NCBI GenBank assembly: GCA_021151825.1
Contig: JAGKWQ010000014.1
Location: forward strand, 6,455-70,454
From: Cellvibrionaceae bacterium
GTDB lineage: Bacteria > Pseudomonadota > Gammaproteobacteria > Pseudomonadales > Cellvibrionaceae
DNA: 64,000 nucleotides
Reading direction: 5' to 3'
Part shown: positions 6,916 through 47,600 of the stretch, piece by piece
Layout: each line of letters begins with the position of its first letter
Position numbering within the stretch: the first letter of the stretch is position 1
Notes under the pieces: model-generated
The model's input: only the letters and a program-made list of their open reading frames with translations
Told to the model about the DNA's origin: nothing
The model's database searches: none
Made by a program: the position numbers and the translations under genes

Positions 6916-7012
6916 TTTTGAGGACAGTTGCATGAGCAGGAAAAATAGGACTAATCACTTTATAGAAACTATTACCTGTGGCTTTCGTCGCACGGAAGAA
7001 ATTGTTGGTTGG

Positions 7013-7079: not shown

Positions 7080-7111
7080 ACTTTTAATTAACGTATATAA
7101 GGAGGGTTCCT

Positions 7112-8899: not shown

Positions 8900-8905
8900 T
8901 TACTC

Positions 8906-8937
8906 ATCCCCCGCGCAAGCCAAAATGCGCGGGGGAT
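8906..8937 (+). terminator. Intrinsic terminator-like hairpin after the hydrolase
   Basis: Perfect 12-bp stem ATCCCCCGCGCA / TGCGCGGGGGAT with an 8-nt loop, followed by TATTATT. Confidence 0.8.
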
Positions 8938-9053
8938 TATTATTAACTTTAAAATCTTAAGAAATTTACTCCTTAATTTTTCCAACGAATTTTACTAATA
9001 AATTTAATTTATCAAATTTTGCCTGGCCGATGTATGGATCGTTATCTATAGCG

Positions 9054-9068
9054 TACCCCATAGGGGTA
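9054..9068. promoter_or_regulatory. Palindrome resembling a CsoR/RcnR/FrmR-family operator
   Basis: TACCCC-ATA-GGGGTA perfect inverted repeat in a very AT-rich spacer. No cognate regulator gene in the window. Confidence 0.4.
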
Positions 9069-9366
9069 TGGTTAATTTATTCTTTAACACAAAAATAAAA
9101 TTTATTCATATATGAAATAGATGTTTTATTATTTATCGATAAATAAATTAAAAATTTATTAAAAAAATTGAAACATTTGGTGGGTAATATGATTGTAACA
9201 GTCAAGGAGCGATGATAGGATCTAACGTTCATGGAGTGGGAATTAAATAGTCAAGGCAGGGTAGTTCATAATTTTTGCTGAATTTCAGCATTGCTGTATC
9301 GTCTGCTCCCTGCTTTTTCTGGTATTCCTTCCTAAAATATACTTATAAATTTTTCCATTTAAGTTT

Positions 9367-9632: not shown

Positions 9633-10475
9633 ATGAAGGTAGCAGTTATTGGTGCGGGCATCATGGGCGTTGATCTTGCCTTGGCATTGGTTGCTGCAGG
9701 GCATAAAGTCTTGCTCAAGGATATACATCAAGATGCGCTTGATTTTGCAAAACAAGCTATACCGCAAAAATTGCGTGGTTATAAGATGCTGAATCCCGCA
9801 CTCAGGAATGTGAGTGTCGAAAGTGTTTTTGAATCAATTCACTTTGTGTTGACCTATGCAGGAATGGATCAGGTTGATTGGGTTGTTGAAAATATCCCTG
9901 AAGATGTTGAACTGAAAAAAAAGGTGTATCAGGAATTGGCTTCCGCTTGCAATAGCTCTGTTTATTACGGAGTTAATACAAGTTGTATATCGATCACAAA
10001 GATTGCCGCCGTTACACCGGATCCATCGCGGGTAATTGGAATGCATTTTATGAACCCTGTGCCAATCAAAACCGGGGTTGAAGCCATACGCGGCTACCAT
10101 ACATCCGAAGAGACTATAGACGCAGCAAAACAATTTCTTAAGTCAATGAATAAACAAATGATTTTGGTAAACGATTACCCCGGGTTTGTTGCCAATCGTT
10201 TATCGCATTTATTTATGAATGAAGCAGCATTTCTGGTTCAGGATCGGGTTGCAGACCCGGCGGCAATTGATGCAATTTTCAAGGAAGGTTATGGGCATAG
10301 TATGGGGCCATTGGAGACGGCTGACTTGATCGGATTGGATACTGTAGTGCTATCTCTGAAAGTACTTTATGAAAACTATCAAGATACTAAATTCAGATGT
10401 TGCCCATTACTACAAAAAATGGTGGATGCAGGCGATCTGGGTAGAAAGAGTGGTAAAGGATTTTACGTCTATTAA
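9633..10475 (+). CDS. 3-hydroxyacyl-CoA dehydrogenase-like (FkbK/ZmaG/XcnB-type, glyceryl-ACP dehydrogenase)
   Basis: GAGIMG, VVENIPE, NTSCISIT, GMHFMNPVP, PGFVANRL, GPLETADLIGLD. First gene of the FkbH cassette. Confidence 0.9.
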   Translation: MKVAVIGAGIMGVDLALALVAAGHKVLLKDIHQDALDFAKQAIPQKLRGYKMLNPALRNVSVESVFESIHFVLTYAGMDQVDWVVENIPEDVELKKKVYQELASACNSSVYYGVNTSCISITKIAAVTPDPSRVIGMHFMNPVPIKTGVEAIRGYHTSEETIDAAKQFLKSMNKQMILVNDYPGFVANRLSHLFMNEAAFLVQDRVADPAAIDAIFKEGYGHSMGPLETADLIGLDTVVLSLKVLYENYQDTKFRCCPLLQKMVDAGDLGRKSGKGFYVY

Positions 10476-10483
10476 TTTGGGGA

Positions 10484-11569
10484 ATGACGATGCTGACGAT
10501 CGATAAAGAAAGGATTTATCCTGCTTCATCCAACAATCAAAAGCTGCAGCCGATTAAATGTGTTGTATGGGACTTGGATAATACCGTATGGCACGGCGTA
10601 TTAGCAGAAAATGATGAGCTTGTTTTGAAGGATGGTGTTGTCGATATTATTGCGGCCCTTGATAAAAAAGGTGTACTTCAGTCCATTGCCAGCAAGAATA
10701 ATTATGATGATGCAGTCAATAAGCTGGAGCAATTCGGGCTGCTTGATTACTTTCTTTACCCTCAAATCAATTGGAATGCAAAGTCATCTTCCGTTGAGCT
10801 GATTTGTAAAAGTTTGAATATTGGTATCGATACATTCCTGTTTATTGACGATCAACCTTTTGAGCTTGAGGAAGTAAAGCTCGCTCATCCACACGTAGAA
10901 ATTTTTGATGCTGCCGACTACCAATCGCTGATGGAGTTTACCCGTATAGATTCTATTGCAGTAGCTGATGACGCAGCTATGCGCAGGGTTCGCTACCAGG
11001 AAGATATGAAGCGGCATCGTAGTGAGGAAGAGTTTGTAGGAACGCCAGAGGCTTTTCTCGCTTCTTTAAATATGGTTTTTACCATTTCAAAAGCATCCCC
11101 CGAGGACTTACTTAGGGCGGAAGAACTGACGGTTAGAACCAATCAACTGAATTCAACGGGTATTACTTACAGTGCAGACGAATTATTTGAATTCATGCAT
11201 TCAGATAAACATGAATTATTAATTTGTGAGTTGACTGATAAGTATGGCTCATATGGAAAAATTGGCCTGACACTAATAGAAAAATGTGAGTCCGTTGATG
11301 TAGTTAAGTTATTACTGATGTCGTGTCGTACAGCTGCTCGTGGAGTAGGTAGTGTATTACTCAGCTATTTAATGCGGCAGGCAAAATCACGCGGTAACTC
11401 GTTGCACGCAGAATTCAGAAGGACGGATCGTAATCGGCAAATGCTGGTTACCTATCAATTTTCAGGTTTCGTAGAACAAAGTCGAGATGCCGAAGGGAAC
11501 ATTTTATTTGAGCACAACCTAGCTGATATCCAGGAATATCCTGATTATATAAAAGTTTTTCATCCGTAA
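10484..11569 (+). CDS. fkbH: FkbH-like glyceryl transferase/phosphatase (HAD-IIIC)
   Basis: VWDLDNTVWHG, SIASKNN, YPQINWNAKS, FIDDQPFE, RTNQLNSTG, DKYGSYGKIG, LLMSCR. Confidence 0.93.
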   Translation: MTMLTIDKERIYPASSNNQKLQPIKCVVWDLDNTVWHGVLAENDELVLKDGVVDIIAALDKKGVLQSIASKNNYDDAVNKLEQFGLLDYFLYPQINWNAKSSSVELICKSLNIGIDTFLFIDDQPFELEEVKLAHPHVEIFDAADYQSLMEFTRIDSIAVADDAAMRRVRYQEDMKRHRSEEEFVGTPEAFLASLNMVFTISKASPEDLLRAEELTVRTNQLNSTGITYSADELFEFMHSDKHELLICELTDKYGSYGKIGLTLIEKCESVDVVKLLLMSCRTAARGVGSVLLSYLMRQAKSRGNSLHAEFRRTDRNRQMLVTYQFSGFVEQSRDAEGNILFEHNLADIQEYPDYIKVFHP

Positions 11570-11609
11570 ATTGTCATTTTAAATAGTTATTGTTAGGGAA
11601 AGGAATTTT

Positions 11610-11876
11610 ATGCGCTATTCAGAACCACTAGTCCGCGAAAAAATTCGCCAATTTATCATTGCCAACATGAATAGCTTTGAAGAGATTGAGCTTTTAGATA
11701 GTGACAATATTTTTCAGAGCGGCTTTGTGAGTTCAATTTTTGCTATGCGTTTGCTCAATTTTATTGAGAAGGAATTTTCAGTACAAATTCCCGACGATGA
11801 TATTTTGCTTAAAAACTTCAGCTCTGTTGATGTGATGAACGAGATGGTTTCCCGTTTGCAATCTGAAACGGCTTAA
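11610..11876 (+). CDS. Stand-alone acyl carrier protein (FkbJ/ZmaD/XcnD-type)
   Basis: 88 aa acidic protein, DNIFQSGFVSSIFAMRL phosphopantetheine site, located between fkbH and the ACAD. Confidence 0.88.
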   Translation: MRYSEPLVREKIRQFIIANMNSFEEIELLDSDNIFQSGFVSSIFAMRLLNFIEKEFSVQIPDDDILLKNFSSVDVMNEMVSRLQSETA

Positions 11877-11890
11877 TAGCAGTGCACCCA

Positions 11891-13048
11891 ATGAACAATA
11901 AATCAGTACATCCATTAGTTGCGCAAGCAAAGGCATTTGTTGATACATCAATTCGTCCTTATGCGGGGCAGTTTGATGCGCAGGGAGAAGTCCCTCAAGA
12001 GATTGTCAGGGCAATGGCTGATAAAGGTTTTTTAGGTTCCATTTTGCCCATTGAATATGGCGGCTTGGGGCTTGATGCGTTGGCGTATGGTTATTTGACC
12101 GAAGAGCTTGGCAAAGGCTGTAACTCAGTTCGTACGTTGCTAACTGTACACACTAGCCTTGTGGGTGAAACGTTAGCCCGGTTAGGAACCGCATTCCATA
12201 AAGAACAGTATCTCACGGCGATTGCAAAGGGAGAAAAGATTGCATGTTTTGCACTCTCTGAGCCGGGAGTAGGAACAGATGCAACGGCGGTGCAAACATC
12301 CTATATCGAAGACGGTGATAACTTTGTTATCAATGGCCGAAAAAAATGGATTTCATATGCAGCAATTGCTGATGTTTTTTTGGTATTTGCGAGTGACGCC
12401 ACAGGAGCAGTCAGTGCTTTTTTAGTGGAGCGTGGTGACGGTGTTACTACTGTGCCAATGACAGGTATGTTGGCTAGCCGTGGCTCCCATATTGCAGAAG
12501 TTTTTTTTGACAATGTACGCGTACCTAAAAGGAATCTTGTTGGCCGTTTGGGAATGGGATTTAGCTTCGTAGCCAATACGGCTTTATTTTATGGTCGCTA
12601 TAGCATTGCCTGGGCGGGAGTTGCACTTGCGCATGCTGCAGTCGAAGAAATGGCAACTTATGCTCGTACCCGTGAACAGTTTGGAAAAAAAATAGGGCAG
12701 CATCAACTCGTTCAAGGATTGATTGCCGATGCAGTAACCTCACTGCACCTTGCCCGATCAACGTGTGAAAAGGTGGCCATGTTGCGCATTGCAGAAGATG
12801 ATGAAGCAATTATGGAAACTAATATTGCAAAATATTTTACGTCAAAAATTGCCATGGATATTACTACCAATGCGGTACAGGTTTTTGGCGGTAATGGATG
12901 TTGGAATATTTATCCGGTTGAAAGACTTTTCCGGGAAGCAAAAGTGCTGGAAATTATCGAGGGAACATCCCAGATACAACAGGTAATGATTGCTGAATAT
13001 GGAATTAAACGCTATTACCGCGCGCTATCTAAAGTTGAATACGCGTAA
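11891..13048 (+). CDS. Acyl-CoA dehydrogenase-like (FkbI/ZmaE/XcnE-type)
   Basis: FALSEPGVGTD, NGRKKWIS, REQFGKKIGQHQLVQ, AVQVFGGNG, EIIEGTSQIQ. ATG 11891 preferred over GTG 11882. Confidence 0.9.
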   Translation: MNNKSVHPLVAQAKAFVDTSIRPYAGQFDAQGEVPQEIVRAMADKGFLGSILPIEYGGLGLDALAYGYLTEELGKGCNSVRTLLTVHTSLVGETLARLGTAFHKEQYLTAIAKGEKIACFALSEPGVGTDATAVQTSYIEDGDNFVINGRKKWISYAAIADVFLVFASDATGAVSAFLVERGDGVTTVPMTGMLASRGSHIAEVFFDNVRVPKRNLVGRLGMGFSFVANTALFYGRYSIAWAGVALAHAAVEEMATYARTREQFGKKIGQHQLVQGLIADAVTSLHLARSTCEKVAMLRIAEDDEAIMETNIAKYFTSKIAMDITTNAVQVFGGNGCWNIYPVERLFREAKVLEIIEGTSQIQQVMIAEYGIKRYYRALSKVEYA

Positions 13049-13195: not shown

Positions 13196-16100
13196 ATGTT
13201 TACTACGCTCATTGATGCACTTATTGCTTGCAAAAAAACCGAAAAAGGCATTGTCTTCATCAAGAATACTGAAGAAGACGATTTTCTTTCTTATGCGGAT
13301 CTTTACAAAAGAGCAATTCATTTACTGGCTCATTTGCAGCATTCTGGCGTGCAATCAGGCGATGAGTTGGTGCTGCAATGTGCATCCTTACAAGAGCTTA
13401 TGGAAGGCTACTGGGCGTGTTTACTTGGGAAAATAGTGCCGGTGCCCCTGGCATTAGCAGATCAGGGTGAGAATGCCTTAAAAGTATTTAATGTGTGGTC
13501 GGCTTTACAAAAGCCATGGTTGTTGGCGGACACTCCCGCTGTATTGGAGAAGTTATCCAGTTTTGCCGGAAAGCATAATCTCGCTAACGAATTTATAGAA
13601 ATCTCTACAAAAACACTGTTGATTGAGCATTTTCCAGAGGATTCCGGAACACCGGAACTTCCCACAGTTACACAAGATGATATTGCTTTTATCCAATTCT
13701 CTTCCGGCTCTACAGGCGCGCCAAAAGGAGTTGTGCTTACCCACCATAATCTGCTGGTAAACATTCGCGATATCCTGGCATCCGTCCAACATACTGAATC
13801 TGATTCTTTCCTCAGCTGGAAGCCAATCTCCCATGATTTCGGCATGATTGCATTTCATTTGGCTCCTGTTGTTGGTGGTTCTACGCAATACCGTATTTCA
13901 ACTGACGCTTACATATGGTCGCCTTCTTTATGGTTCAGTTCGGTTAATAAATATCGAGCAACTATTTTGGGTTCCCCCAACTTTGGTTATCGTCATTTTT
14001 TAAATCTTTATCGCCGCGGAAACCCCGATGGATTTGTTTGGGACCTAAGTTGTGTAAAAGCCATATTTAATGGCGCTGAACCTATATCGGCCAAACTGTG
14101 TGACGAATTTTATCGTGAGCTTGCGCCTTATCAATTAAGTCAGAATGCGATGCGACCAGGATATGGTTTGGCCGAGGCATCGCTAATTGTTTCTTTGTGC
14201 AAGCCAACGGATCTGGTTCGTGAAATATCTATCTCAAGGCATCAGGTGTCGCAAGGGCAGGCGATTGAAATTGTGTCTCCAGATCATAAAGATGCCGTGC
14301 AGTTTGTTGATTGCGGTGTTCCTTATCCATCAACACAAGTTCGAATCACGAATAAAAACCGCAAGCCGGTTGCTGAAGGAATGGTTGGCAATGTTGAGAT
14401 CAAAGGAGAAAATGTCACCACGGGTTATTACGCTAACGAAAGTGCAACAAAAGAAGTGCTGGACAGCGACGGATGGTTAAATACCCAAGACCTTGGTTTT
14501 ATACATGAAGGCCGTTTATTCATCGTTGGTCGCACCAAAGAGATGATTATTATTGGTGGTGTAAATTATTTCCCTCATGATATAGAAAAAGCAATTTTAC
14601 ATGAGATGGGCGATGGCGATTTAAATCGTTTTATCGCGTGTGGAATTAAATCCGTTAAGACTGAAAGTGAACAGCTGGTTATTTTTGTTTATCACAAAAA
14701 AAGTAGCCAGGATTTTGCCCCATTGGTGGAGCAAGTTAAAAAAATTGTATTGGATTCCCTGAATCTCAGGGTTGCCCATGTTGTTCCCGTCAAGCGCATA
14801 CCAAAAACTACCAGTGGCAAAGTTAAACGTTTTGCGTTAGTGCAAGCTTTCAATGAAGGCGCCTACGATGCGGAGCTAGAAACACTAGGGCAGCCCCGTG
14901 AACAAATTATAAACCCGGCGATCAATGCAGAACCGCAAGCCGAAAATGAATCATTTCCAGCTATTAAATTGGCGGATATCCGTAAGCGCGTATGTGCGTT
15001 GGTTGCGGCACTCAGTGGTATTTCCAGCATTGACCCATCAGCCAGTTTTTTTGATTTGGGCCTGACCTCTTTGAAATTGGTGATATTGCAGGAGCAAATT
15101 GAGGAAAGTTTTGGTGTGCAACTCAGCAGCACATCTACGCTGGATAATCCCACGGCTGAATCTCTGACACAAAATATTTTTAATACACTGACAGCGAGAT
15201 CTGTTGATGTCACTCACCAGAAACCTGCAAATCACATTGCCAATAATGACGCAATTGCGATTATCGGTATGGCCTGTCGTTTTCCCGGTGAAACGAATAC
15301 TCCTGACGCATTCTGGCAATTATTAGCAAATAGTATTGATCCGGTTGCCGATATGCCCCTGGAGCGATGGCAAGATGACTTGCAAGCCCAGGTAAATGTG
15401 ACAACACGCAAAGGGGGTTTTCTTAAACAGGTTGATCAATTTGATCCCTATTTCTTTGGTATTTCTCCTATTGAAGCCGAATCACTTGATCCGCAACAAC
15501 GATTGTTATTGGAAGTTTGCCACGAAAGTTTTGAAAATTCCGGTTTGGATGTCCCGGCATTAATTGGCTCCAATACCGGTGTATTTCTAGGAATTTCCGG
15601 GAGCGAGTATGCAGCTGTTGCAAAAGAATATGGTCACGGAACGGGGCCTTATACATTTACCGGCTCAATGTTCAATACTGCTGCCGGCCGAATTTCTTAT
15701 GTTTACGGTTTGCAAGGCCCTTGTATAGCATCTGATACCGCATGTTCTTCTTCGTTAGTTGCGGTCCATCAAGCTTCGCGCGAATTGCGTTCGTTCTCTT
15801 GCGATATGGCGGTCGCTGCTGCAGTTAATTTAATGTTGAAACCTGATGGGCATATCAGTTTTTCAAAAATGAATGCATTGTCCGGTCAGGGCAAGTGTCG
15901 CAGTTTTGATGAAAATGCTGATGGATACATTCGCAGTGAAGGTTGTGCGGCAATTGTTATGAAACGCCTTGCAGATGCCGAGCGCGATGGTGACAACATT
16001 ATTGCCGTTATCCTTGGCTCTGCCGTTAATCATAACGGGCGCAGTGGTGGCCTCACTGTACCTAGCGGTAATGCCCAGGAAAAACTGGTGCGCAAAGCAT

Positions 16101-19100
16101 TACACGCTGCCAATGTTAATGCCGACGATATTGATTACGTAGAGGCCCATGGTTCGGGGACAAAATTGGGTGATCCCCAGGAAGTGGATGCACTGAATAA
16201 AGTATTTGGTCATCGCCGCCGCCCATTATGGTTAGGCAGTGTGAAATCCAATATGGGGCATTTGGAAAGTGCTGCCGGATTAGCCGGTCTGATGAAACTC
16301 GCACTTTCGCTAAAACAGGGTTTGTTAGCTCCCAACCTGCATTTTTCTACACCCAATAGCATGATCGATTGGGAGAATTCCCCATTACGAGTGGTTAATA
16401 AATTAATTGCCTGGCCAGAGAGTAAATCACCACGCACAGGTGCTATCAGTTCATTAGGTATTAATGGCACGAATGTTCATGTTATTGCTCAATCGCATTC
16501 GGCCGCTGAATACCCGGTTGTACCCGTTCGCCATAACGCGCCCTATTTATTTACCTTATCGTCAAAATCAGATGCCAGTTTACGCAATACTGTAAAAGCA
16601 TTTTCTGAAACAGATTTATCAGTTTATCCGCTGGCAGAATTATGCCGTGCAGTTAATTTCCAACGTTCCAGCTATGCATCACGTTTTGCTTGCCTGGTTT
16701 CCAGCACAGAAGAGCTGCAAAAAAAATTGCAACGTTATGTTGATGGAAACTCCGTACCATCCTGTCTGGCTTCGCCAGGTGGTCGTTTTGGCCGGGAACC
16801 TGTTGTATTTCTCTATACCGGCCAGGGGTCGCAATATTCCGGGATGGGTGAAAGCCTATATAAAAATTCGCCGCATTTTAAAGTTTCATTTGATGAATGT
16901 GACCGTTTATTTGCAGAAACACTTGGCGTATCCCTGCTTGATGTCCTGTACGGTGAACAAAAGGATTTATTGTCACAAACGCATATATCCCAGGCATTAA
17001 TTTTTAGTATTGAATATGCATTAACTGCTTTCTGGCACTCGCTGGATATTGTTCCCGATTATGTATTGGGGCATAGCATCGGCGAATACGCAGCGGCCTG
17101 CGCGGCAGGAATTTTGGAATTACCTGATGCAGTAGCAATGGTGTCCCTGCGTGGCAACGTGATGCAAGGCAGCAATGCCTCGGGCAAGATGGTGGGAATA
17201 TTAGGTAGCCGCGAACAAGTAGACACGCTGTTGGCAGAGTGTCCGGGCGCTTATATCGCAGCAGTGAATACAGCGGAAAATTTCACAATCGCTGGCACAA
17301 CAACAGCTGTTGAAAAATGTGTTGCCGCAGCAAAGCAAGCAAGAGTTTTTACTGAAGCCTTGCCAATGCAACACGCTTTCCATACTCCATTGATGGCTGC
17401 GTCAGCGGCGGAACTTGCACAAGGTTTGGATGGCATTCGATTTAATTCCCCAACAATTCCTTTTGTGTCTACTAAAACCGGACGTGTGATTGAATCAGCC
17501 ACGGATATTGGTGTGAGTTACTGGAGTGAACATCTCTCTTCACCGGTATTATTCGCCGATGCAATACAGACGCTGATACAAGCTGGGGCAAATTATTTTA
17601 TCGAGTTAGGTGGTACTGCAACCCTGACGGGCCTGGCCGCACAAATTATTGATACTGATGATGCCTGTTTTGTTCCATCATTGCGCCAAAACCGCGATGC
17701 CTGGACCCAGATTAGTGAAAGCCTCGCACAACTTTATTTACAAGGCGCTGCTGTAAATTGGAAATCGTTCCATGGCGGACGCCCGACACCGCTCACGTCC
17801 TTGCCTAATACCGTTTATCAACGTGAAACCTATTGGTTTAAAAAACTGAATGAAAGCACCAATTCAGAAACACAAATTCAAAATAAATCCAATCTGATAA
17901 GCACTGCCACTGTTGCTATTGCAGCAAAAACTCCTGCTAGAGACATCGCCCCCGTTGTTACTGAATTAACACTACAAACGGTGGTTTCTGATGTTCGCCA
18001 AATGATTAGCCAGGTAACTGGTGTGGCGGAAACAGATCTCGCTGATGACGTACATTTATTTTCCCTGGGCGTTGATTCATTGATGCTGGTGCAGCTTGAT
18101 AAACGCATCACCGGGCGTTATCAGGTTGAAATAACCATGGGTGAGTTTTTTAGCGAATTGAATACGCCACAAGCGATAGCAAATCATATTTTTACCAAGA
18201 CCCCGGAAGAAATTCGTGCTCGTTATCGCCAGATAATTACTCCTGCTGAGGCTGGATTACCTGCTGTGCCAGCAGCCGATGCAAGTATTGCGGCGATTGT
18301 GCAAACCCAGTTGGCATTAATGCAACAACAATTGGCGTTATTAGGTGGGCAGCCAATCAATGTTAATTCATCGGTTGGTCCTGTTGCGATAACGTCTGTG
18401 CCGGGCACAAAAAAACCATTGCTTGCGCCAGAGAAAAAGCGTGCAAATATTCGTGATATTGTTCTTGAAGAAGAAAATATTAATGCGCAACAAAAAGCAT
18501 TTGTTGCGCAACTTGTCAGTGAGCTGACGGCGAGAACCGGCAAATCAAAAATTTATGCGGAGCAGCATCGCGATGGTTTTGCAGACTGGATTGCCACGCT
18601 CAATTTCACACTAACGACCAAAGAATTAATTTATCCGCTGGTTGCAGAAAGCTCGAAAGGTAGCCGCTTCCTCGATATTGATGGCAACGAATATATTGAT
18701 ACTGCCATGGGTTATGGTGTTTGCCTGTTCGGACACAACCCCGATTTTGTGGCAGAGGCAATCCAGCAGCAATTGGTGAAGGGAATAGAACTTGGCCCTC
18801 AATCTGCAATTGCAGGCGAGGTAGCGCAATTGGTGCGAGACCTGACTGGGGTTGAACGGGTTGCATTTGCGAATACCGGCACAGAAGCAGTAATGGTTGC
18901 TATACGCCTTGCCCGCGCTGCAACAGGTCGCCGTAAAATTGTTCGATTTATTACATCCTTCCATGGTTCATTTGATGGTGTGCTTGCAGAAGTTGGTGAA
19001 AATGGTTCAGAACCAATGGCATCCGGTATTCCACAATCCATGGTCGATGACACTATCGTTTTGCATTACGGTGCAGAAGATTCATTAACCCGAATTATTG

Positions 19101-22100
19101 AGCAAGCAGAAGATATTGCTGCTGTTTTGGTTGAACCGGTGCAAAGCCGTAATCCCGGCTTTCATCCGCGTGAATATTTGCATGCGCTGCGCGACCTTAC
19201 ACAACATCATGGTATCGCGTTAATTTTCGATGAAATGGTAACAGGTTTTCGCTGTCATCCTGCTGGTGCGCAAGCATATTTTGAGGTGCAAGCCGACCTG
19301 GTGACTTATGGAAAAATTGCCGGTGGTGGAATGCCTATCGGAATTGTTGCTGGCAAGAAAATATTTATGGATGCCATCGACGGCGGCACCTGGCGCTTTG
19401 GTGATACATCTGGCCCCGGTGCTGAAACAACATTTTTTGCCGGAACATTTTGTAAACATCCGCTCACCATGGCTGCAGCACGTGCCGTGCTTACTCGTAT
19501 TAAGGAAGAGGGCGTATCATTACAAGAACGTATCACACGCATGGCAATCGCGTTGGTTGAACGGCTAAACCATTATTTTGATGCGGACCAGGTTCCAATC
19601 AAAATGAAAATGTTTAGTTCAATGTATCGCTTTGAAACTGGAGCCTCGCAGGATCTACCGCGCTTGTCATTGGAAATGAATTTGTTTTTCCGGTTGATGC
19701 AATTGCAAGGTGTTTATGTATGGGAACGGCGCACCTGTTTCTTTTCAGCGGCTCACAGTGATGCGGATGTTGACCGGATTTTTGCTGCCGTTTGTTACGC
19801 CGTAAAACGATTACGTGAAGGCGGATTTAGTTTTCGTGCGTTAACAAAAAATGCCGAGCCAAATAATTTCCCGGGTACTACAGGGCGTCATCCGTTATCG
19901 GCAGAAGAGCGCAGATTATATGTCCTTAGTAATCTCAATGGCGGTACGCAAGCCTATAAAATCCGGGGTGCATTGAAACTCTCGGGTACGCTGGAGCTCC
20001 AGCGTTTGGAGAATGCCCTTGCCACTGTAGTTCAGCGTCATGACACGTTACGCAGCCATTATGAAATTTCTGCCCAAGGAATTGAACGTGTTATTAATGA
20101 TGAGGTAGCGGTTAATCTTGAACGCCATTACCCTGCCAGCAGCGATTCCCTTGACGATATTCTTAACATTGAAAAATCCTATCCACTGACCCAGGCACCG
20201 CTGTGGCATATTTCGCTGATTCAACTGGGTGCTACAGAACACATATTGGTATTTGATTTTCATCACTTGATTGCGGATGGTTTGTCCATATCGATCATCA
20301 TTGATGACCTTATGGCTATTTATAGTGGCAGCGATGCAAAACCGGTAACGTTAACCTATAGCGACTATGTGCAATGGCAAACCGGTTTTGTTACCGGAGT
20401 CACATTTGCGCAGCAAAAAAATTATTGGTTGGATAATTTACTGCCATTACCTGATCCCCTGGCATTACCGTCAGACTTTAACCGCCCTCCGCATAATGAT
20501 TTTTGTGGTGGCTCGCTTGAATTCCAGATTGATTCTGTACAAAACGGCAAGCTTAAATCTATTGCGAAACAGCAACAGGTAACCCCGTTCATGCTGTTGC
20601 TTGCCAGCTATGCCATTTTGGTTCATAAATTAAGCCAGCAAGATGATATTTGCATCGGCGTTCCATTTGATCTGCGCGGCAATGGCAATTTCGAGCGTAC
20701 TATCGGAATGTTTGCCCAGACATTGATTTTGCGTCTGAACACAGATCGAAAAATTCCGTTTACACAATTACTTGAACATGTGCGCACACAATGTGCCGCA
20801 GCCTATTCTCATCCGAATGTTCCGTTGGATGCGATTATCGAAGAGTTGAATGTGGTGCGCGAAATGAGTCGCAACCCGGTTTTCGATACGATGTTTATTT
20901 ATGAAACCGGAGATAGCCGCCTTACAGGAACCCAGGGTTTGGAGGTGGAAACATTACCACTTAAGACACAAGGTTCTGCATTTGATTTGACATTGGAGAT
21001 CACCGAGGAGCGTGGGAACCTGCGCTGCTCATTTATCTATGCAAAACGATTGTTCCGCGCCGAAACGATTAATCGCTGGAAATCTTATTTTGAAACTATT
21101 CTCGATCAAATTATTGAGAACGCAGATGTTACCTTGAATGCAATTAATATCCTGCATAAACAAGATGAACAACGATTATTAGTCGAATTTAACAATAGCC
21201 AGCGCAACTACGATTTCGATCATTCACTTCCGCATTTGCTATCCGCTGCGGCACAACAGCACGCAGACAATATTGCACTGGTTGTTGATAGTCCAAGCGG
21301 AAAAGTACACTTAAGTTATCGTCAGTTAGATGCTGAATCGGATCGGCTGGCACATTATCTCATTGCGCAAGGTGCTGGTGCGGGCCATTGCATCGGTATT
21401 TTATTAAAACGCGAAGCCTCGCTAATTGTTGCGCTCCTGGCTGTATTAAAGGCCGGGGCCGCTTATGTTCCGCTTGATCCTGAATATCCGACGGCACGAC
21501 TCTCCTATATGGTTGAGCGGGCTGGTGTAAGTTTATTGATTAGCAAACCGGAATTGGTTTCAGGTTTGAATTACAACAGCCACCTGATAAATCCGGATGA
21601 CGTTCCCGATACAACAACTGCTCACCAGCTTCCGGTAATAAATCCGCATGATCTGGCATACGTTATTTTTACTTCCGGCTCCACTGGAAACCCTAAAGGG
21701 GTGATGCTTGAACATCGCAATCTCGTCAATTTTGTATTGTCGATGCAAGAGCAGTTGGCACTCTCTGCTCATTCAGTAGTATTAGGCCTGACAACTTTCT
21801 CCTTCGATATTTTTGTGCTGGAAGTCTTCGTCACCCTGGCCCAGGGCGCGCGACTGGTTCTTGCCAACGAACAGCAACAACAAAACCCTGAATTGTTAAG
21901 TCAATTGATGCAGGATACGGCGGTTAATGTTGCACAAATGACGCCCAGCCGTTTGCAATTATTTCTGTCTGTGGCAAGTGCGCAGCCTGTACTGAAACAG
22001 TTGGAAATTCTTTTAGTCGGTGGGGAAGCATTCCCCGCGCAATATCTGACGCAATTACAACAATTTCCGCAACTCCGTTTATTAAATATGTACGGCCCAA

Positions 22101-23611
22101 CGGAGACTTGTGTGTGGTCTGTCATAAAAGATCTGACAACTGCAACGGAAGTGACTCTTGGTAAACCGATTGCCAATACTCGCCTGTACGTAATGGACCA
22201 AAACCATTCCCTCCTGGCAGAGGGGGCCAAGGGCGAATTATTTATTGCCGGTGCCGGTGTTGCACGTGGTTATTGGCAAGATGATGAGCGCACTGCGCAA
22301 TCATTTCTGGATGATCCTTTTGTTGCCGGGGAAAAAATGTATGCCACGGGTGATATTGTTTCCTGGACGATGGATGGCGAACTTGGTTATCACGGCCGTC
22401 GCGATAATCAAATCAAACTGCGTGGTTATCGGATTGAATTGCAAGATATTGAAGCTGCATTGCTATCCTTCGCAAAAATTGAAACCGGTGCAGTAGTTGT
22501 CAGACATTTAAGCGAACACAACCCTGTCCTGGCCGCCTTTTACAAAGCACAGGATTCTGTTGCTGACAGCGATCTGGAATTGGAATTACGCACTTATCTG
22601 CGCTCACGACTGCCGGAATATATGGTTCCTTCGGTTCTGGTTTCCCTGCCTAATTTGCCGTTGACGCCTAATGGAAAAATTGACCGGAAAAGTTTACCAG
22701 AAAATATCCACTCCATCGGGCTACAACAACAGCTCCCGGAAAGTGTGGACATTGATGATGGTGCTACAGAAGACCCAATCATTGCAAAGATACGTTCAGT
22801 GTGGAAAAAAATTCTGGGCGAAAAAAATATTTCCCAACACAGCAGTTTTTTTGATGTGGGTGGTAACTCATTTAGCTTGATGTTAATGCACGCTGGTTTA
22901 AATGAACATTATCCGGATGTTGTCGACGTCACCGATATTTTTTCCAATCCCACAATTCGTTCATTACGCGATTTAATTGTGCAACGCATCGATCAGCAGG
23001 ATGAATTTTCATTTACCGAGATTCGCTTGCCCGCTGATTTTTTTGACGTGAGCGGGAATACCAGTAGTGCCAGCCATATGCAGATAGAGCTGGATAAGAG
23101 CTGGACTGTAAAAGCTGTTGGTTTGGCTGCGCGCTATGCGGTGGATACTTACGATGTTGTACTGGCGATGAAAGCACTTTACCTCAACAAGTTACTCGAT
23201 CAAAACCGCATAACGGTATATGCCCCGGCCAGAGAAATTACGATCAATACAGCGGCAGGATTTATTGCTATTGATCTCGATTTCAATCAATTGGCGGATA
23301 TGGAAAGCCTGCTCCATGCGGTACACAAACAGCGTACTTTGACGATTGCATCAACAACAATTCACACCGATATTCCATCGCCAAAACGCAAACACGATGA
23401 TGGTGTAATTGCATTATTTCGCGATCAACATTCTAGTGATACACAAGATCCGCGATCATTCGATATGGTTTATAGCCTGAAGCTCCACGATGCCGGAACG
23501 GCATTGCGCGTGGATTTTAACCAGCGTCGATTGTGCGAGAAAAAAATAAATGGCTTTTTAGGTGGCTATGTAAAGCTCATGAAAGCCGTCGTTGAAGCTT
23601 CCGAAGGATGA
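13196..23611 (+). CDS. Starter megasynthase FAAL-ACP-KS-AT-ACP-aminotransferase-C-A(Gly)-T-truncated C (MycA-like)
   Basis: FAAL FIQFSSGSTGAPKG; ACP GLTS; KS DTACSSS/EAHGSGT/NMGHLE; AT GHSIG/HAFH; ACP GVDS; class III aminotransferase FDEMVTGFR/TYGKIAGGG; C HHLIADG; A code read manually as DILQLGMVWK (Gly); T GGNS; final ~200 aa resemble only the C-terminal lobe of a C domain. Confidence 0.9.
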   Translation: MFTTLIDALIACKKTEKGIVFIKNTEEDDFLSYADLYKRAIHLLAHLQHSGVQSGDELVLQCASLQELMEGYWACLLGKIVPVPLALADQGENALKVFNVWSALQKPWLLADTPAVLEKLSSFAGKHNLANEFIEISTKTLLIEHFPEDSGTPELPTVTQDDIAFIQFSSGSTGAPKGVVLTHHNLLVNIRDILASVQHTESDSFLSWKPISHDFGMIAFHLAPVVGGSTQYRISTDAYIWSPSLWFSSVNKYRATILGSPNFGYRHFLNLYRRGNPDGFVWDLSCVKAIFNGAEPISAKLCDEFYRELAPYQLSQNAMRPGYGLAEASLIVSLCKPTDLVREISISRHQVSQGQAIEIVSPDHKDAVQFVDCGVPYPSTQVRITNKNRKPVAEGMVGNVEIKGENVTTGYYANESATKEVLDSDGWLNTQDLGFIHEGRLFIVGRTKEMIIIGGVNYFPHDIEKAILHEMGDGDLNRFIACGIKSVKTESEQLVIFVYHKKSSQDFAPLVEQVKKIVLDSLNLRVAHVVPVKRIPKTTSGKVKRFALVQAFNEGAYDAELETLGQPREQIINPAINAEPQAENESFPAIKLADIRKRVCALVAALSGISSIDPSASFFDLGLTSLKLVILQEQIEESFGVQLSSTSTLDNPTAESLTQNIFNTLTARSVDVTHQKPANHIANNDAIAIIGMACRFPGETNTPDAFWQLLANSIDPVADMPLERWQDDLQAQVNVTTRKGGFLKQVDQFDPYFFGISPIEAESLDPQQRLLLEVCHESFENSGLDVPALIGSNTGVFLGISGSEYAAVAKEYGHGTGPYTFTGSMFNTAAGRISYVYGLQGPCIASDTACSSSLVAVHQASRELRSFSCDMAVAAAVNLMLKPDGHISFSKMNALSGQGKCRSFDENADGYIRSEGCAAIVMKRLADAERDGDNIIAVILGSAVNHNGRSGGLTVPSGNAQEKLVRKALHAANVNADDIDYVEAHGSGTKLGDPQEVDALNKVFGHRRRPLWLGSVKSNMGHLESAAGLAGLMKLALSLKQGLLAPNLHFSTPNSMIDWENSPLRVVNKLIAWPESKSPRTGAISSLGINGTNVHVIAQSHSAAEYPVVPVRHNAPYLFTLSSKSDASLRNTVKAFSETDLSVYPLAELCRAVNFQRSSYASRFACLVSSTEELQKKLQRYVDGNSVPSCLASPGGRFGREPVVFLYTGQGSQYSGMGESLYKNSPHFKVSFDECDRLFAETLGVSLLDVLYGEQKDLLSQTHISQALIFSIEYALTAFWHSLDIVPDYVLGHSIGEYAAACAAGILELPDAVAMVSLRGNVMQGSNASGKMVGILGSREQVDTLLAECPGAYIAAVNTAENFTIAGTTTAVEKCVAAAKQARVFTEALPMQHAFHTPLMAASAAELAQGLDGIRFNSPTIPFVSTKTGRVIESATDIGVSYWSEHLSSPVLFADAIQTLIQAGANYFIELGGTATLTGLAAQIIDTDDACFVPSLRQNRDAWTQISESLAQLYLQGAAVNWKSFHGGRPTPLTSLPNTVYQRETYWFKKLNESTNSETQIQNKSNLISTATVAIAAKTPARDIAPVVTELTLQTVVSDVRQMISQVTGVAETDLADDVHLFSLGVDSLMLVQLDKRITGRYQVEITMGEFFSELNTPQAIANHIFTKTPEEIRARYRQIITPAEAGLPAVPAADASIAAIVQTQLALMQQQLALLGGQPINVNSSVGPVAITSVPGTKKPLLAPEKKRANIRDIVLEEENINAQQKAFVAQLVSELTARTGKSKIYAEQHRDGFADWIATLNFTLTTKELIYPLVAESSKGSRFLDIDGNEYIDTAMGYGVCLFGHNPDFVAEAIQQQLVKGIELGPQSAIAGEVAQLVRDLTGVERVAFANTGTEAVMVAIRLARAATGRRKIVRFITSFHGSFDGVLAEVGENGSEPMASGIPQSMVDDTIVLHYGAEDSLTRIIEQAEDIAAVLVEPVQSRNPGFHPREYLHALRDLTQHHGIALIFDEMVTGFRCHPAGAQAYFEVQADLVTYGKIAGGGMPIGIVAGKKIFMDAIDGGTWRFGDTSGPGAETTFFAGTFCKHPLTMAAARAVLTRIKEEGVSLQERITRMAIALVERLNHYFDADQVPIKMKMFSSMYRFETGASQDLPRLSLEMNLFFRLMQLQGVYVWERRTCFFSAAHSDADVDRIFAAVCYAVKRLREGGFSFRALTKNAEPNNFPGTTGRHPLSAEERRLYVLSNLNGGTQAYKIRGALKLSGTLELQRLENALATVVQRHDTLRSHYEISAQGIERVINDEVAVNLERHYPASSDSLDDILNIEKSYPLTQAPLWHISLIQLGATEHILVFDFHHLIADGLSISIIIDDLMAIYSGSDAKPVTLTYSDYVQWQTGFVTGVTFAQQKNYWLDNLLPLPDPLALPSDFNRPPHNDFCGGSLEFQIDSVQNGKLKSIAKQQQVTPFMLLLASYAILVHKLSQQDDICIGVPFDLRGNGNFERTIGMFAQTLILRLNTDRKIPFTQLLEHVRTQCAAAYSHPNVPLDAIIEELNVVREMSRNPVFDTMFIYETGDSRLTGTQGLEVETLPLKTQGSAFDLTLEITEERGNLRCSFIYAKRLFRAETINRWKSYFETILDQIIENADVTLNAINILHKQDEQRLLVEFNNSQRNYDFDHSLPHLLSAAAQQHADNIALVVDSPSGKVHLSYRQLDAESDRLAHYLIAQGAGAGHCIGILLKREASLIVALLAVLKAGAAYVPLDPEYPTARLSYMVERAGVSLLISKPELVSGLNYNSHLINPDDVPDTTTAHQLPVINPHDLAYVIFTSGSTGNPKGVMLEHRNLVNFVLSMQEQLALSAHSVVLGLTTFSFDIFVLEVFVTLAQGARLVLANEQQQQNPELLSQLMQDTAVNVAQMTPSRLQLFLSVASAQPVLKQLEILLVGGEAFPAQYLTQLQQFPQLRLLNMYGPTETCVWSVIKDLTTATEVTLGKPIANTRLYVMDQNHSLLAEGAKGELFIAGAGVARGYWQDDERTAQSFLDDPFVAGEKMYATGDIVSWTMDGELGYHGRRDNQIKLRGYRIELQDIEAALLSFAKIETGAVVVRHLSEHNPVLAAFYKAQDSVADSDLELELRTYLRSRLPEYMVPSVLVSLPNLPLTPNGKIDRKSLPENIHSIGLQQQLPESVDIDDGATEDPIIAKIRSVWKKILGEKNISQHSSFFDVGGNSFSLMLMHAGLNEHYPDVVDVTDIFSNPTIRSLRDLIVQRIDQQDEFSFTEIRLPADFFDVSGNTSSASHMQIELDKSWTVKAVGLAARYAVDTYDVVLAMKALYLNKLLDQNRITVYAPAREITINTAAGFIAIDLDFNQLADMESLLHAVHKQRTLTIASTTIHTDIPSPKRKHDDGVIALFRDQHSSDTQDPRSFDMVYSLKLHDAGTALRVDFNQRRLCEKKINGFLGGYVKLMKAVVEASEG

Positions 23612-24873
23612 ATATTATTATGAAAAAAATTGCGGTGTTATTTTCCGGTCAGGGTTCCCAATATATAGGTATGGGTAAAGCCTTATATGAACAGCATGAC
23701 GCTGTCCGCAAACTTTATCAGGAAGCCTCGGACATTTTATCGATTGACATGGCCAAACTGTGTTTTGAAGGTCCTGCTGATCTGCTGAATAAAACTGAAA
23801 ATACCCAGCCGGCATTGTTGTTAAACAGTGTTGCTGCTTATCAGGTTTTTATTAATAACACGCGTTTATCGCCCCACGTTTTTGCCGGGCATAGCCTGGG
23901 TGAGTTGAGTGCATTGGTGTGTGCCGGAGCGCTGTCGGTTACGGATGGTTTGAGGTTGGCTCGCGCACGTGGCCTGGCTATGTCGCGCAGTGCCAATGAA
24001 GGCAATACCGGTATGTATGCAATCACCAAACTTGACCGCGATCACCTTGAAAAAATTGCCGCACAAGACCAAGACTTTGGTACAGCACTGGTAATTGCAA
24101 ATTTCAATTCAGCGCGGCAGCAAGTGTTATCGGGTGATTTAACCGCGCTTGCCCGTGTAGGTGAGCACATGAAAGCGGAAGGTGGCACCGTAATTCCATT
24201 GCGAGTAAGTGGCGCTTTTCACAGCCCTTATATGCAAGCAGCCGCGCAGGAGTTTAAAGAGTTATTACAAACCACTGAATTGAATCCGTTAAAAATTTCT
24301 GTGGTAGCCAATGTTGATGGAAAACCCTATCAATCAGTTGCTGAAATCAAGGAAAAGTTGGTGCAACAAATTACTGCACCGGTTTTATGGCAAGACACCA
24401 TGGAATATCTGCGCGATGCCAATGTAGATATATTTATTGAAGCAGGACCTGGTGAAGTTCTACGGAAATTAGCACAAATAAATATTGCCGGATGCAAAGC
24501 GTTTGCTTTGGACAAAACAGAAGAAGAACGCGAACTATTACAGGAGTTGGATGCTGATATTCGCCAGTTAAAAGAACAGCCCACATTATTAGGGAAATGT
24601 TTGGCTATCGCAGTTAGCACTAAAAATAATAATTGGGATGAAGCAAGTTATCGACAAGGAGTTGTTGAACCCTATCAAAAAATCAAGGAAATGTACGATC
24701 ACTCCAAACAATCATCAGTGGACCCCGCGCCATCACAATTGGCTGAAGCCCTGGATTTATTGCGCCTTATTTTTACCACCAAAGGCACACCGCCGGAAGA
24801 GCAACGCTTGCGTTACCTCCACATCGGCGAGGTAACAGGTAAACGCGATTTGATTGAAAAATATATAGCTTAA
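23608..24873 (+). CDS. Discrete acyltransferase (trans-AT), FenF/ItuD/ClbG-like with ~110-aa C-terminal extension
   Basis: FSGQGSQ, GHSLGE, SGAFHS, IEAGPG. Helical tail (CLAIAVSTKNNNWDEASY...FTTKGTPPEEQ) is absent from housekeeping FabD. ATGA-coupled to the starter gene. Confidence 0.88.
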   Translation: MNIIMKKIAVLFSGQGSQYIGMGKALYEQHDAVRKLYQEASDILSIDMAKLCFEGPADLLNKTENTQPALLLNSVAAYQVFINNTRLSPHVFAGHSLGELSALVCAGALSVTDGLRLARARGLAMSRSANEGNTGMYAITKLDRDHLEKIAAQDQDFGTALVIANFNSARQQVLSGDLTALARVGEHMKAEGGTVIPLRVSGAFHSPYMQAAAQEFKELLQTTELNPLKISVVANVDGKPYQSVAEIKEKLVQQITAPVLWQDTMEYLRDANVDIFIEAGPGEVLRKLAQINIAGCKAFALDKTEEERELLQELDADIRQLKEQPTLLGKCLAIAVSTKNNNWDEASYRQGVVEPYQKIKEMYDHSKQSSVDPAPSQLAEALDLLRLIFTTKGTPPEEQRLRYLHIGEVTGKRDLIEKYIA

Positions 24874-44696: not shown

Positions 44697-47600
44697 ATAT
44701 CAAAACCACTACTACAGGTTTGGAAATTGCGGTAATTGGTTTATCCGGACGCTTTCCCGGCGCGATCGATATTCACGAATTTTGGAAAAACCTGATATCT
44801 GCATCAGACACGATTGATTTGCTATCACTTGAAGAATTGCGGGCAGCAGGTGTTGATGAAGAACTTTTGCAGCAACCTAATTTTGTAAAAGCCAAAGGAG
44901 TTTTTCCAGAGCTGGAGTTTTTTGATGCGGAATTTTTTGACTACACCCCGCGGGATGCAGAAACCATTGATCCACAAGTGCGTGCATTGCACCAAGGGGT
45001 TTACCACGCATTGGAAGATGCCGGGTATCCCGCAGATGGCAGGAAACGCAATATCGGTTTATTTGCCGGTGCATCCGGTAATTTTAATTGGGAACTGGCG
45101 ACCTTACTTAAAGCATCCAGCGGTAGTGCCAGTCAATTTGCCGCGATCCAATTAAACGATAAAGATTTTTCGGCGACCCGCCTGGCTTACAAATTAAATT
45201 TGTGTGGCCCCAGTGTTACTGTACATTCAGCGTGTTCAACATCTCTTTATGCAATTGATTTAGCCTGCCGCAATTTATACACAGGCGCATGTGCAATGGC
45301 CATTGCCGCATGCAGTGGTTTGACGTTGCCCCATCGCAATGGTTATTTGTATGAAGATGGAATGATCAAATCGCCCGATGGAAAATGTCGCCCATTTTCC
45401 ATGGAAGCGAATGGTACCGTGGAAGGCAATGGTATGGGGGTTGTGGTATTGCGCCCCCTTGCTGATGCAGTGAAAGCCGGGGATCGGATCTATGCCGTTA
45501 TTCGTGGCACAGCCGCTAACAACGATGGCAACCGCAAGGTAGGGTACACAGCTCCCAGTGTTGAGGGGCAGGCTGAAGTTATTCGTCGTGCAATTTTTAT
45601 GGCTGAAGTAGAGCCGGAATCGATCACCTATATTGAAGCGCATGGCACAGGAACCAATTTGGGTGATCCGGTTGAAATTGAAAGTTTGAAAAAAGCATTC
45701 AATACCGAAAAGCGTAATTTCTGTGGTATTGGTTCATTGAAATCCAATATCGGCCATCTCGATACTGCTGCGGGTATTTCGTCGTTTATTAAAACAGTAT
45801 TGGCTCTTAAACATCGCGAATTACCACCTACCGTTAATTTCACCGAAGCTAACCCGGAAATCAATTTTGAGCAGAGTCCGTTTCATGTCATCACCGAACG
45901 CCAGCAATGGCAACGCCCTGCACACCCTGAAGAAATAAATGCGTTTTTGCCCCTGCGCGCGGGTGTTAGCTCTTTTGGGATTGGCGGAACCAATGTGCAC
46001 GTTATTCTGGAAGAGGCTCCGGAGATTACGGCATCCTCACCATCCTCAGAATGGAACACGTTGTGCGTGAGTGCAAAAAACGAAGCGGCTTTAGCTCGCG
46101 CGGTACAACAACTTAATTATTATATCGACGCTAATCGCACGATGAATCCTGCGGATTTGGCTTACACCTATCACGTTGGGCGCGGTCAATTTGCGCATCG
46201 AAAAACCTGGGCATATAAAACACTTGAAGATTTGCAAGTGCAATTGACACAGGAAAGTGAACAAACTCGTATTGCAAAATCACCATTGCGCGTTGCATTT
46301 TTATTTCCAGGGCAAGGTACGCAATATCCTGCGATGGCCTCTGGTTTGTATCAGCAAATACCGCAATTCCGCAGTGAGCTTGAAAAATGTTTGGCGATTT
46401 GTGAGCAAATCGGTGAGGCGCATATCCGCGGCTTATTATTAAGCCCTCGCGATGGTGATGAACAAGTTATCCGCGCCACCTCGTCTGCGCAATTAAGTTT
46501 ATTTGTGATTGAATATTCTCTCGCTAAAACATTAATGGAGTGGGGAGTAAAACCCTATGCCATGCTCGGCCATAGCCTGGGCGAGTATGTGGCGGCGTGT
46601 ATCGCTGGAGTATTTACACTGGATGATGCCCTGAAACTTGTGAGCCAGCGCGGGAAGCTAATGCAGGCAATGGCCCCCGGTGCAATGTTGGCGGTGAATT
46701 TATCTGAGCAACAACTGCGTGAATGCATACCCGTCGGATTGGATATTGCAGCTGTTAATGGGCCAGAGCAATGCACAGTGGCAGGGTCATTAGTAATGAT
46801 CGACTCTTTTGCCTCTTCCCTGCAAAAACAAAACGTAATTGCCAAACCCTTGCAAACTTCCCATGCATTTCATTCCGCAATGATGGAACCGATGCTGGAT
46901 GAATATGAGCGAATCCTGGGTGAAATAGAGTTCAAACGGCCACAGCTAGCTTATGTATCAAACGTTACCGGAACATGGATTAGCGACGCGCAAGCAATGG
47001 ACCGACGTTATTATCTGGATCATGTTCGCCAGGCAGTTCGTTTTGCGGATGGTATCACTCAGTTAATCGTGGAGGAAAATACCTTATTTGTCGAAGTGGG
47101 TGCGGGTGGTGTATTAACTGCATTTGCAAAACAACAACCACAAGCACGGGCTATTCCCGCTATCTCACTTGTGCGTCACATCAAAAAAGACATTGAAGAT
47201 GCACATTTTTTTGCACAAGCAATAGGCGAATTATGGGCTCATGGAGCAACGCTTGATTGGCGAAAATTCTACAATATGCAACAGCGTCAATTGCTGGATG
47301 CTCCGTTTTATCCCTTTGCCAAAACTCCGCTGGTTATTAATTACGGTGATATTTACAGCTTATTAAAAGGATTTTCTGCTCCTGCCAATGTTATTGGTAA
47401 TAACATTACTTATCCGCAACATTTCAGTTGGCAGGATGCATTGGTAAACAAGGCTACTGATAATGATATTGTCTACCCTTGTTTGATTTTTAATACTCAT
47501 AAAGGAAAACAGAAAAAGTTTTCGCTAATTGGTGGTTTGCGCCCAATCCAGATTAGCGATTCAGATAAATACCTCAAGATAGCCGCCAATAACTATGGAA

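Follow-up and report, generated by a model that had tools for sequence, protein, structure and literature searches.

Hydroxymalonyl-ACP (ACP, acyl carrier protein) is a rare polyketide extender unit for which few acceptor acyltransferases (ATs) have been characterised. In the zwittermicin A system of Bacillus cereus, it is associated with ZmaN, ZmaD, ZmaG and ZmaE and with the cis-AT of ZmaA, while in the amicoumacin and xenocoumacin literature genes of the xcnB-E type (AmiE-H) are assigned to the hydroxymalonyl pathway and the hydroxymalonyl module is AmiI/XcnH (PMC4894447, PMC5055758). A beta-amino fatty acid starter logic is found in the mycosubtilin/iturin synthase MycA, which has the order FAAL-ACP-KS-ACP-AMT-C-A-T (FAAL, fatty acyl-AMP ligase; KS, ketosynthase; AMT, aminotransferase; C, condensation; A, adenylation; T, thiolation), has no cis-AT, uses malonate and is accompanied by the discrete AT FenF. 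Here we describe a biosynthetic locus of a Cellvibrionaceae bacterium (assembly GCA_021151825.1; "the window" denotes the whole 64-kb stretch of DNA that was analysed). A four-gene hydroxymalonyl-ACP cassette at 9633-13048 is directly followed by a large synthase gene, ORF1 (ORF, open reading frame). According to Pfam, its product shows the MycA-type order FAAL-ACP-KS-...-ACP-aminotransferase-C within one protein and, as in mycosubtilin, a discrete AT is encoded beside it; unlike MycA, ORF1 contains a diverged cis-AT (PF00698 at aa 1204-1518). Based on comparative sequence analysis, we consider it probable that this first-module AT takes hydroxymalonyl-ACP, which would give a 3-amino-2-hydroxy fatty acyl starter.

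The cassette and its conserved synthase

The four ORFs of the cassette are co-directional on the + strand. The first product is a 3-hydroxyacyl-CoA-dehydrogenase (HCDH) homologue that matches 3HCDH_N (PF02737, 1.4e-47) and 3HCDH (PF00725, 1.4e-31). The FkbH-family protein scores 253.8 bits against TIGR01686 (cut-off 146.65), carries the DxDxT motif of HAD proteins as DLDNT and has the SCR cysteine motif. The free-standing ACP matches PP-binding (1.8e-4) and NF005480 (1.8e-8), and the acyl-CoA-dehydrogenase (ACAD) homologue contains three Acyl-CoA_dh domains (1e-20 to 1e-37, Pfam). The serine of the ACP sits in GFVSSIFAMRLL, the equivalent helix being GLVNSLFAMRLL in XcnD and GYVNSLFAMQML in ZmaD, i.e. 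a GxVxSxFAM(R/Q)(L/M)L helix is common to all three; identity to ZmaD is 39%. The genes stand in the same order as their xcnB-E homologues in Xenorhabdus doucetiae, with identities of 56, 58, 42 and 62%. Within the window there is no separate methyltransferase gene of the FkbG type (the sole methyltransferase, MT, is a domain within ORF7), no gene for a free adenylation enzyme and none for a FabH-like tetronate condensing enzyme. The zwittermicin system has the same four enzyme types, and no O-methyltransferase either.

A first-pass annotation of this DNA had described the dehydrogenase, FkbH, ACP and ACAD genes as lying in xcnBCDE order, had noted the lack of an FkbG-type O-methyltransferase and of a stand-alone adenylation enzyme, and had proposed a hydroxymalonyl-ACP cassette. 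The order and both absences are borne out by the family matches and by the ORFs and domains of the window. Together they support hydroxymalonyl-ACP as the product expected from established pathway logic (Chan et al. 2006, as cited in PMC5355916 and PMC4207774). The genome contains a single FkbH copy, that of the cassette, and nine AT matches, three of which are in the cluster.

In order to define the conserved partner of the cassette, we compared related loci. FkbH homologues are numerous (55-89% identity), and the neighbourhoods of ten were examined. In eight of them an ORF1-type synthase directly follows the cassette, namely: the window itself, a JGI metagenome, Alteromonas sp. a30, Pleionea sp. 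CnH1-48, Saccharophagus degradans, Aliikangiella maris, Massilia sp. W12 and Vibrio sp. Of7-15. The remaining two, those of X. doucetiae and V. proteolyticus, are xcn-type. When an alignment of six ORF1-type ATs was used to scan one genome per species, this added a metagenome-assembled genome (MAG) of the Lysobacterales and one of the Bacillota with the same layout. This brings the total to ten clusters in Gammaproteobacteria, Betaproteobacteria and one Bacillota MAG, in which the gene for a (FAAL)-ACP-KS-AT-ACP-aminotransferase synthase comes directly after the cassette. The AT matches at 43% identity or more are all flanked by HCDH, FkbH, ACAD, FAAL and aminotransferase (3/3), whereas the cassette-plus-aminotransferase arrangement is found with none of the 77 matches at 40% or less. 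Cassette genes lie near just one of those 77, in a Desulfobacteraceae MAG, where they are arranged differently. A discrete AT is present in 10/10 clusters, and genes like ORF3, ORF4 and ORF5 in all six clusters with readable downstream genes.

Individual members of this group show variations. In Vibrio sp. Of7-15, the ORF1-type protein is without FAAL, and the HCDH and FkbH genes lie on the opposite strand from those for ACP and ACAD, beside a thiolase gene; a genus search centred on this genome returned only that genome. In the Desulfobacteraceae MAG, the genes for HCDH, ACP, ACAD and FkbH are interleaved with a KS-AT gene whose AT is canonical (VKVK/HAFH), and no aminotransferase is present; the FkbH cassette may be used differently there.

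Table 1. Features of the cassette and assembly line; coordinates are positions in the window.
Feature	Coordinates	Strand	Basis
3-hydroxyacyl-CoA-dehydrogenase homologue (FkbK/ZmaG/XcnB type)	9633..10475	+	280 aa; Pfam PF02737, PF00725; 56% to X. doucetiae XcnB homologue
FkbH-family phosphatase/acyltransferase (ZmaN/XcnC type)	10484..11569	+	361 aa; TIGR01686; 58% to XcnC homologue
Free-standing ACP (ZmaD/XcnD type), extender carrier	11610..11876	+	88 aa; PP-binding, NF005480
Acyl-CoA-dehydrogenase homologue (FkbI/ZmaE/XcnE type)	11882..13048	+	388 aa; PF02771, PF02770, PF00441; 62% to XcnE homologue
ORF1: FAAL-ACP-KS-AT-ACP-aminotransferase-C-A-PCP (PCP, peptidyl carrier protein) plus ~200-aa tail	13196..23611	+	Pfam; synteny
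ORF1 AT domain, aa 1195-1530, proposed hydroxymalonyl-ACP acceptor	16781..17785	+	Motifs, clade, clade-specific residues, cassette-only distribution
ORF1 ACP2, in-line carrier, proposed receiver of the extender	17990..18190	+	PP-binding, aa 1599-1665
ORF1 class-III aminotransferase domain	18635..19654	+	PF00202, aa 1814-2153
Discrete trans-AT, 421 aa with C-terminal tail	23608..24873	+	TIGR00128; GQGSQ/GHSLG/R/GAFH; short-branched clade apart from ZmaF
ORF7 cis-AT (KS-AT-MT-ACP-C module), predicted to be malonyl-CoA specific, not the conserved partner of the cassette	46298..47233	+	HAFH; K/R in triplet of 3/3 orthologues; module absent from Pleionea and Vibrio Of7-15

The acyltransferase of the first module

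The three ATs of the cluster carry GHSIG/HAFH (ORF1-AT), GHSLG/GAFH (the discrete AT) and GHSLG/HAFH (ORF7-AT), exactly the HAFH, GAFH and HAFH listed at first pass, and the GYSxG change of the zwittermicin ATs is absent from all three (all GHSxG). For ORF1-AT, the GHSIG is encoded at 17069-17083 and the HAFH at 17372-17383, while the three residues of the carrier-recognition triplet, F-T-E, are encoded at 17348-17356. The suggestion that one of these ATs might have a hidden specificity gains support in the case of ORF1-AT from a cassette-exclusive clade with an altered triplet, an altered lid and altered malonyl-signature residues; the HAFH itself is kept here.

The ten ORF1-type ATs group in a clade of their own (SH-aLRT 99), whose stem measures 0.82 substitutions per site, compared with 0.03-0.2 for internal branches among the neighbouring malonyl-type cis-ATs of the same tree. 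We compared the residues of these ten with those of 74-78 malonyl-type neighbours. An RxR carrier-recognition triplet was described by Haydock and by Park et al., and the latter propose loss of its basic residues as a mark of ATs for ACP-linked extenders (PMC4207774). In the ORF1-type clade, the triplet is F-T-E in nine members and F-V-E in one, so that K/R occurs in 0/10 as opposed to 69/74 neighbours. The V-S preceding the HAFH position is kept in one of ten (67/74 in neighbours). HAFH itself is kept in half of the clade (66/74 in neighbours), the other five being HPFH (twice), GAYH, QPFH and HAYH; the QPFH, the most deviant of these, belongs to Saccharophagus degradans.

Changes are also found elsewhere in the domain. 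Residue 1364 is T in all ten ORF1-type ATs and V in 78/78 neighbours, and L1315M, F1407L, P1473G and P1475A are further changes invariant in the clade. The second Gln of GQGSQ, conserved in 78/78 neighbours, is variable in the clade, and the proline of TQP is lost in eight of its ten members. In FabD, K189/R190 and R287 contact both CoA and ACP (bioRxiv 10.1101/2020.05.15.098798); in the region that aligns with FabD K286, nine of the ten ORF1-type ATs have replaced the basic residue with Ala. No member of the clade has lost the nucleophilic Ser, catalytic His or carboxylate-binding Arg, and ORF1-AT should therefore be active on a malonate-type unit.

FAAL/aminotransferase modules also occur without the cassette, in Scytonema, Sphaerospermopsis and Polyangium, and their ATs have the canonical triplet and HAFH. 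Because these modules keep the canonical motifs, the change in the AT tracks the cassette and not the aminotransferase context alone. As proposed here for ORF1-AT, the acceptor in zwittermicin A biosynthesis is a dedicated cis-AT without basic carrier-recognition residues. The details differ: ZmaA has GYSFG, GAAH and M-C-M, whereas ORF1-type ATs have GHSxG, HAFH in half of them and F-T-E; and the ZmaA module contains a ketoreductase (KR) domain where ORF1 has an aminotransferase. The two ATs are 27.5% identical, and the ORF1-type clade is separate from ZmaA-AT, the characterised hydroxymalonyl AT included in the tree.

Gene identity, synteny, the distribution of the clusters and the signature of the AT clade are matters of observation, onto which the following pathway can be drawn. 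FkbH would transfer a glyceryl unit from 1,3-bisphosphoglycerate to the free-standing ACP, the XcnB-type dehydrogenase would oxidise glyceryl-ACP to 2-hydroxy-3-oxopropionyl-ACP, and the ACAD homologue would perform the last oxidation. The four genes would thus convert a glycolytic C3 unit to (2R)-hydroxymalonyl-S-ACP, as ZmaN/D/G/E and XcnB-E do. The cis-AT of ORF1 would then move hydroxymalonyl from the free-standing ACP to ACP2 of ORF1, where its condensation with the FAAL-activated fatty acyl chain by the KS would yield a 2-hydroxy-3-oxoacyl-ACP. The in-line aminotransferase is predicted to convert the 3-oxo to a 3-amino group, giving 3-amino-2-hydroxy fatty acyl-ACP, and the C-A-PCP module of ORF1 to extend this thioester into the peptide-polyketide line. 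Further along, the discrete AT would feed malonyl to three AT-less modules, and the cis-AT of ORF7 would use malonyl-CoA.

Taken together, we give somewhat better than even chances to a broader reading, in which these clusters of marine Gammaproteobacteria, Massilia and a Bacillota MAG represent a widespread and uncharacterised lipopeptide-polyketide family that combines hydroxymalonyl-ACP with an in-line aminotransferase to make an alpha-hydroxy-beta-amino fatty acid. As part of this same reading, the unit would be accepted by a second hydroxymalonyl-ACP-specific cis-AT lineage, evolved independently from malonyl-type ATs, whose signature would be F-T-E, T1364 and a remodelled lid rather than the HAFH position. 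Since that signature lies outside the HAFH position, predictors based on HAFH would misassign this lineage.

Several points weigh against assigning hydroxymalonyl-ACP to ORF1-AT. The domain in the window keeps both HAFH and GHSIG, and it scores higher against the malonyl AT CurL (211 bits) than against ZmaA-AT (123 bits). An Arg lies two residues before F-T-E in nine of the ten ORF1-type ATs and may partly offset the lost positive charge. Loss of the basic triplet is not decisive alone because the discrete AT is also non-basic there (TVI in the window, and without K/R in six of the seven orthologues examined), and because both ATs are present in 10/10 clusters, co-occurrence with the cassette cannot separate them. 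The ten clusters are related, and their counts are not independent events. In Saccharophagus degradans, no 3-hydroxyacyl-CoA-dehydrogenase gene is found across the 21-kb locus. Finally, we infer every enzymatic step, as well as the product, from a comparison of sequences.

The cassette of Saccharophagus consists of FkbH, ACAD and an ACP called at 136 aa, whose N-terminal extension is probably due to a wrong start. We also considered charge complementarity between helix II of the cassette ACP (F38/R41, AcpP numbering) and F-T-E. This was dropped; the in-line ACPs of the cluster are also without the AcpP-type acidic residues.

Other candidate acceptors of the extender unit

The discrete AT remains the main rival to ORF1-AT, because its triplet also lacks K/R. 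The intervening assembly line offers it several possible partners: ORF3 and ORF4 are each an AT-less KS-DH-KR-ACP (DH, dehydratase), with the catalytic His and Asp of the DH domain retained in both, and ORF5 is KS-ACP-C-A-PCP-C/E. The discrete AT is predicted to supply malonyl units to all three AT-less modules, i.e. those of ORF3 and ORF4 and the KS-ACP of ORF5. To ORF3 and ORF4, whose DH domains are apparently active, it must feed malonate; a 2-hydroxy unit there would make little chemical sense. In a dual role, which we regard as unlikely, it would deliver malonyl-CoA-derived units to these two modules and hydroxymalonyl from the cassette ACP to the KS-ACP of ORF5, giving a 2-hydroxy-3-oxoacyl unit ahead of the next amide bond.

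The start of ORF5 (34527-36900) is an AT-less KS-ACP with its Cys-His-His intact and without beta-processing domains, directly before a C domain, and by its domain content it should leave a beta-keto group beside an amide bond. The xcn-type PKSs (polyketide synthases) of X. doucetiae and V. proteolyticus likewise start with an AT-less KS-ACP.

Apart from this suitable KS, the dual role is favoured by the occurrence of the discrete AT in every cluster, and of an ORF5-like module in all readable ones, as well as by a length and C-terminal tail shared with the aminomalonyl-ACP-specific ZmaF (35% identity over 400 aa). Furthermore, the discrete AT is without the basic residues of the FabD K189/R190 type, whereas K/R stands at the triplet in the FabDs and in most of the other trans-ATs examined from these genomes. 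The substitutions, i.e. TVI, SVI, SYI, ALI, SVI and EVI, with KVI in one orthologue (L024), are variable and not fixed, and thus show no sign of selection for a new contact. The discrete AT also keeps the canonical malonyl residues GQGSQ, GHSLG and Arg, with GAFH in 6/7 orthologues, whereas ZmaF has replaced them with GVGSH, GYSLG and GPFH and lies on a branch of 1.81. Both the stem (0.31) and the tips of the discrete-AT clade are short; the clade is separate from ZmaF, and the discrete AT is nearer to ordinary long trans-ATs (42-44% identity). A class-wide search for relatives of the discrete AT gave only one other match, at 39% identity, too little material to draw on. As far as we know, all ATs characterised for ACP-linked extenders serve one such extender and no other substrate (ZmaA-AT, ZmaF and OzmC; PMC6164871), which also argues against a dual function. 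Oxazolomycin OzmC and ZmaF are precedents for an ACP-linked extender in lines served by trans-ATs; those systems carry a second, dedicated trans-AT, whereas this cluster has one discrete AT that is canonical-looking and not ZmaF-like.

The match of the discrete AT to the FabD equivalog TIGR00128 (308 bits) was initially taken as evidence for malonyl-CoA use and was then dropped; RefSeq also labels ZmaF 'ACP S-malonyltransferase'. Because the aminomalonyl-ACP-specific ZmaF is so annotated, names and FabD-model matches cannot tell ATs for ACP-linked extenders apart. ZmaF is encoded at 35637-36854 of the B. cereus plasmid zma cluster.

Next, the cis-AT of ORF7 could be the acceptor, in a canonical, ZmaA-like use of the unit by the last PKS module. 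We consider this distinctly improbable. ORF6 is C-A-PCP and ORF7 is KS-AT-MT-ACP-C. Among PDB entries, ZmaA-AT is the second-best match of ORF7-AT (229 bits; CurL, 215 bits), and ORF7-type ATs join ZmaA-AT, SpnD-AT and XcnF-AT1 in the tree with a support of 99. The AT phylogeny proposed at first pass as a check thus does place one AT of the cluster with ZmaA-AT, but the outcome is not clean, as the clade also holds the malonyl-type XcnF-AT1 and SpnD-AT. XcnF corresponds to AmiL-M, a late, malonate-incorporating PKS (PMC5055758, PMC4894447). ORF7-AT is nearly equidistant from ZmaA (37%), CurL (36%) and XcnF-AT1 (38%), and its orthologues have HAFH and a K/R triplet in 3/3 cases. In addition, ATs with about 40% identity to ORF7-AT come from genomes without an FkbH match above the family cut-off in eight of the 12 cases tested.

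The distribution of the terminal module bears on the same question. Pleionea and Vibrio Of7-15 have all four cassette genes intact and lack the terminal KS-AT-MT-ACP-C module. The last synthetase of Pleionea is C-A-T-C-A-T-C-TE (TE, thioesterase), without a PKS part, and the only three AT matches of that genome are the ORF1-type AT, the discrete AT and FabD; the Vibrio Of7-15 cluster ends in modules of a nonribosomal peptide synthetase only. Since the cassette persists in both without that module, it is unlikely to have either ORF7-AT or the terminal C domain as its conserved partner. On these grounds, and given the assignment of XcnF, ORF7-AT was rejected as the ZmaA-like partner suggested by the PDB search.

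A non-canonical fate, in which glyceryl- or hydroxymalonyl-ACP is used AT-free by a KS or as a C-domain nucleophile (the first-pass annotation had named the terminal C domain as a possible acceptor), or in which the dehydrogenases act on the fatty acyl chain, would fit the lack of ZmaA/ZmaF-type GYSxG or GAAH/GPFH in any AT of the window but is very improbable, given that clusters without the terminal C domain retain the cassette, that the four genes match the xcnB-E homologues of the hydroxymalonyl pathway in order and at 42-62% identity (PMC4894447, PMC5055758), and that the window has no FabH-like tetronate condensing enzyme.

Predicted product and neighbouring genes

With ORF1-AT as the probable acceptor, the predicted product can be compared with those of known systems. 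In xenocoumacin and amicoumacin, the hydroxymalonyl unit likewise gives a vicinal pair of O- and N-functionalised carbons; there it is added to an amino acid and undergoes ketoreduction, whereas here it would be added to a fatty acid and undergo transamination. In the pathways of the cyanobacterial puwainaphycins and microginins, the 2-hydroxyl is attributed to an oxygenase. These cyanobacterial peptides, which are made with FAAL, PKS and aminotransferase (PMC4219810), already contain a residue of the predicted type. The cassette, for its part, belongs to the Zma/Xcn hydroxymalonyl family. The cassette-less cyanobacterial FAAL/aminotransferase modules described above (Scytonema, L053; Sphaerospermopsis, L067; the Polyangium module is L044) have no FkbH cassette and canonical malonyl ATs. 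Full-text searches of the literature turned up neither a paper that connects hydroxymalonyl to an aminotransferase domain or to 3-amino-2-hydroxy lipopeptides nor a characterised product for this cluster family.

If ORF1-type ATs do represent a second, independent lineage, the HAFH/YASH rule of genome-mining software fails for the first-module AT, and the clusters encode a new route to 3-amino-2-hydroxy fatty acids, which are found in protease-inhibiting and membrane-active peptides. At least ten orphan clusters emerge from the comparison as a conserved family, with a testable structural prediction for their products, and those that have and those that lack the terminal PKS module are natural variants suited to comparative metabolomics.

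Further PKS loci are found elsewhere in the genome, on a contig (C2) without FkbH. Among these are a tandem pair of trans-ATs within one frame of 640 aa, and a protein of 1507 aa with an AT that shares 42% identity with ORF7-AT. Finally, Lol-like export genes, encoding FtsX-type permeases, an ABC ATPase and a LolA-like protein, travel with the cluster in varying positions: they lie upstream of the cassette in Massilia sp. W12 (locus 5138-9151) and Pleionea (locus 697-3443), and downstream of ORF7 here (window 51805-55951).

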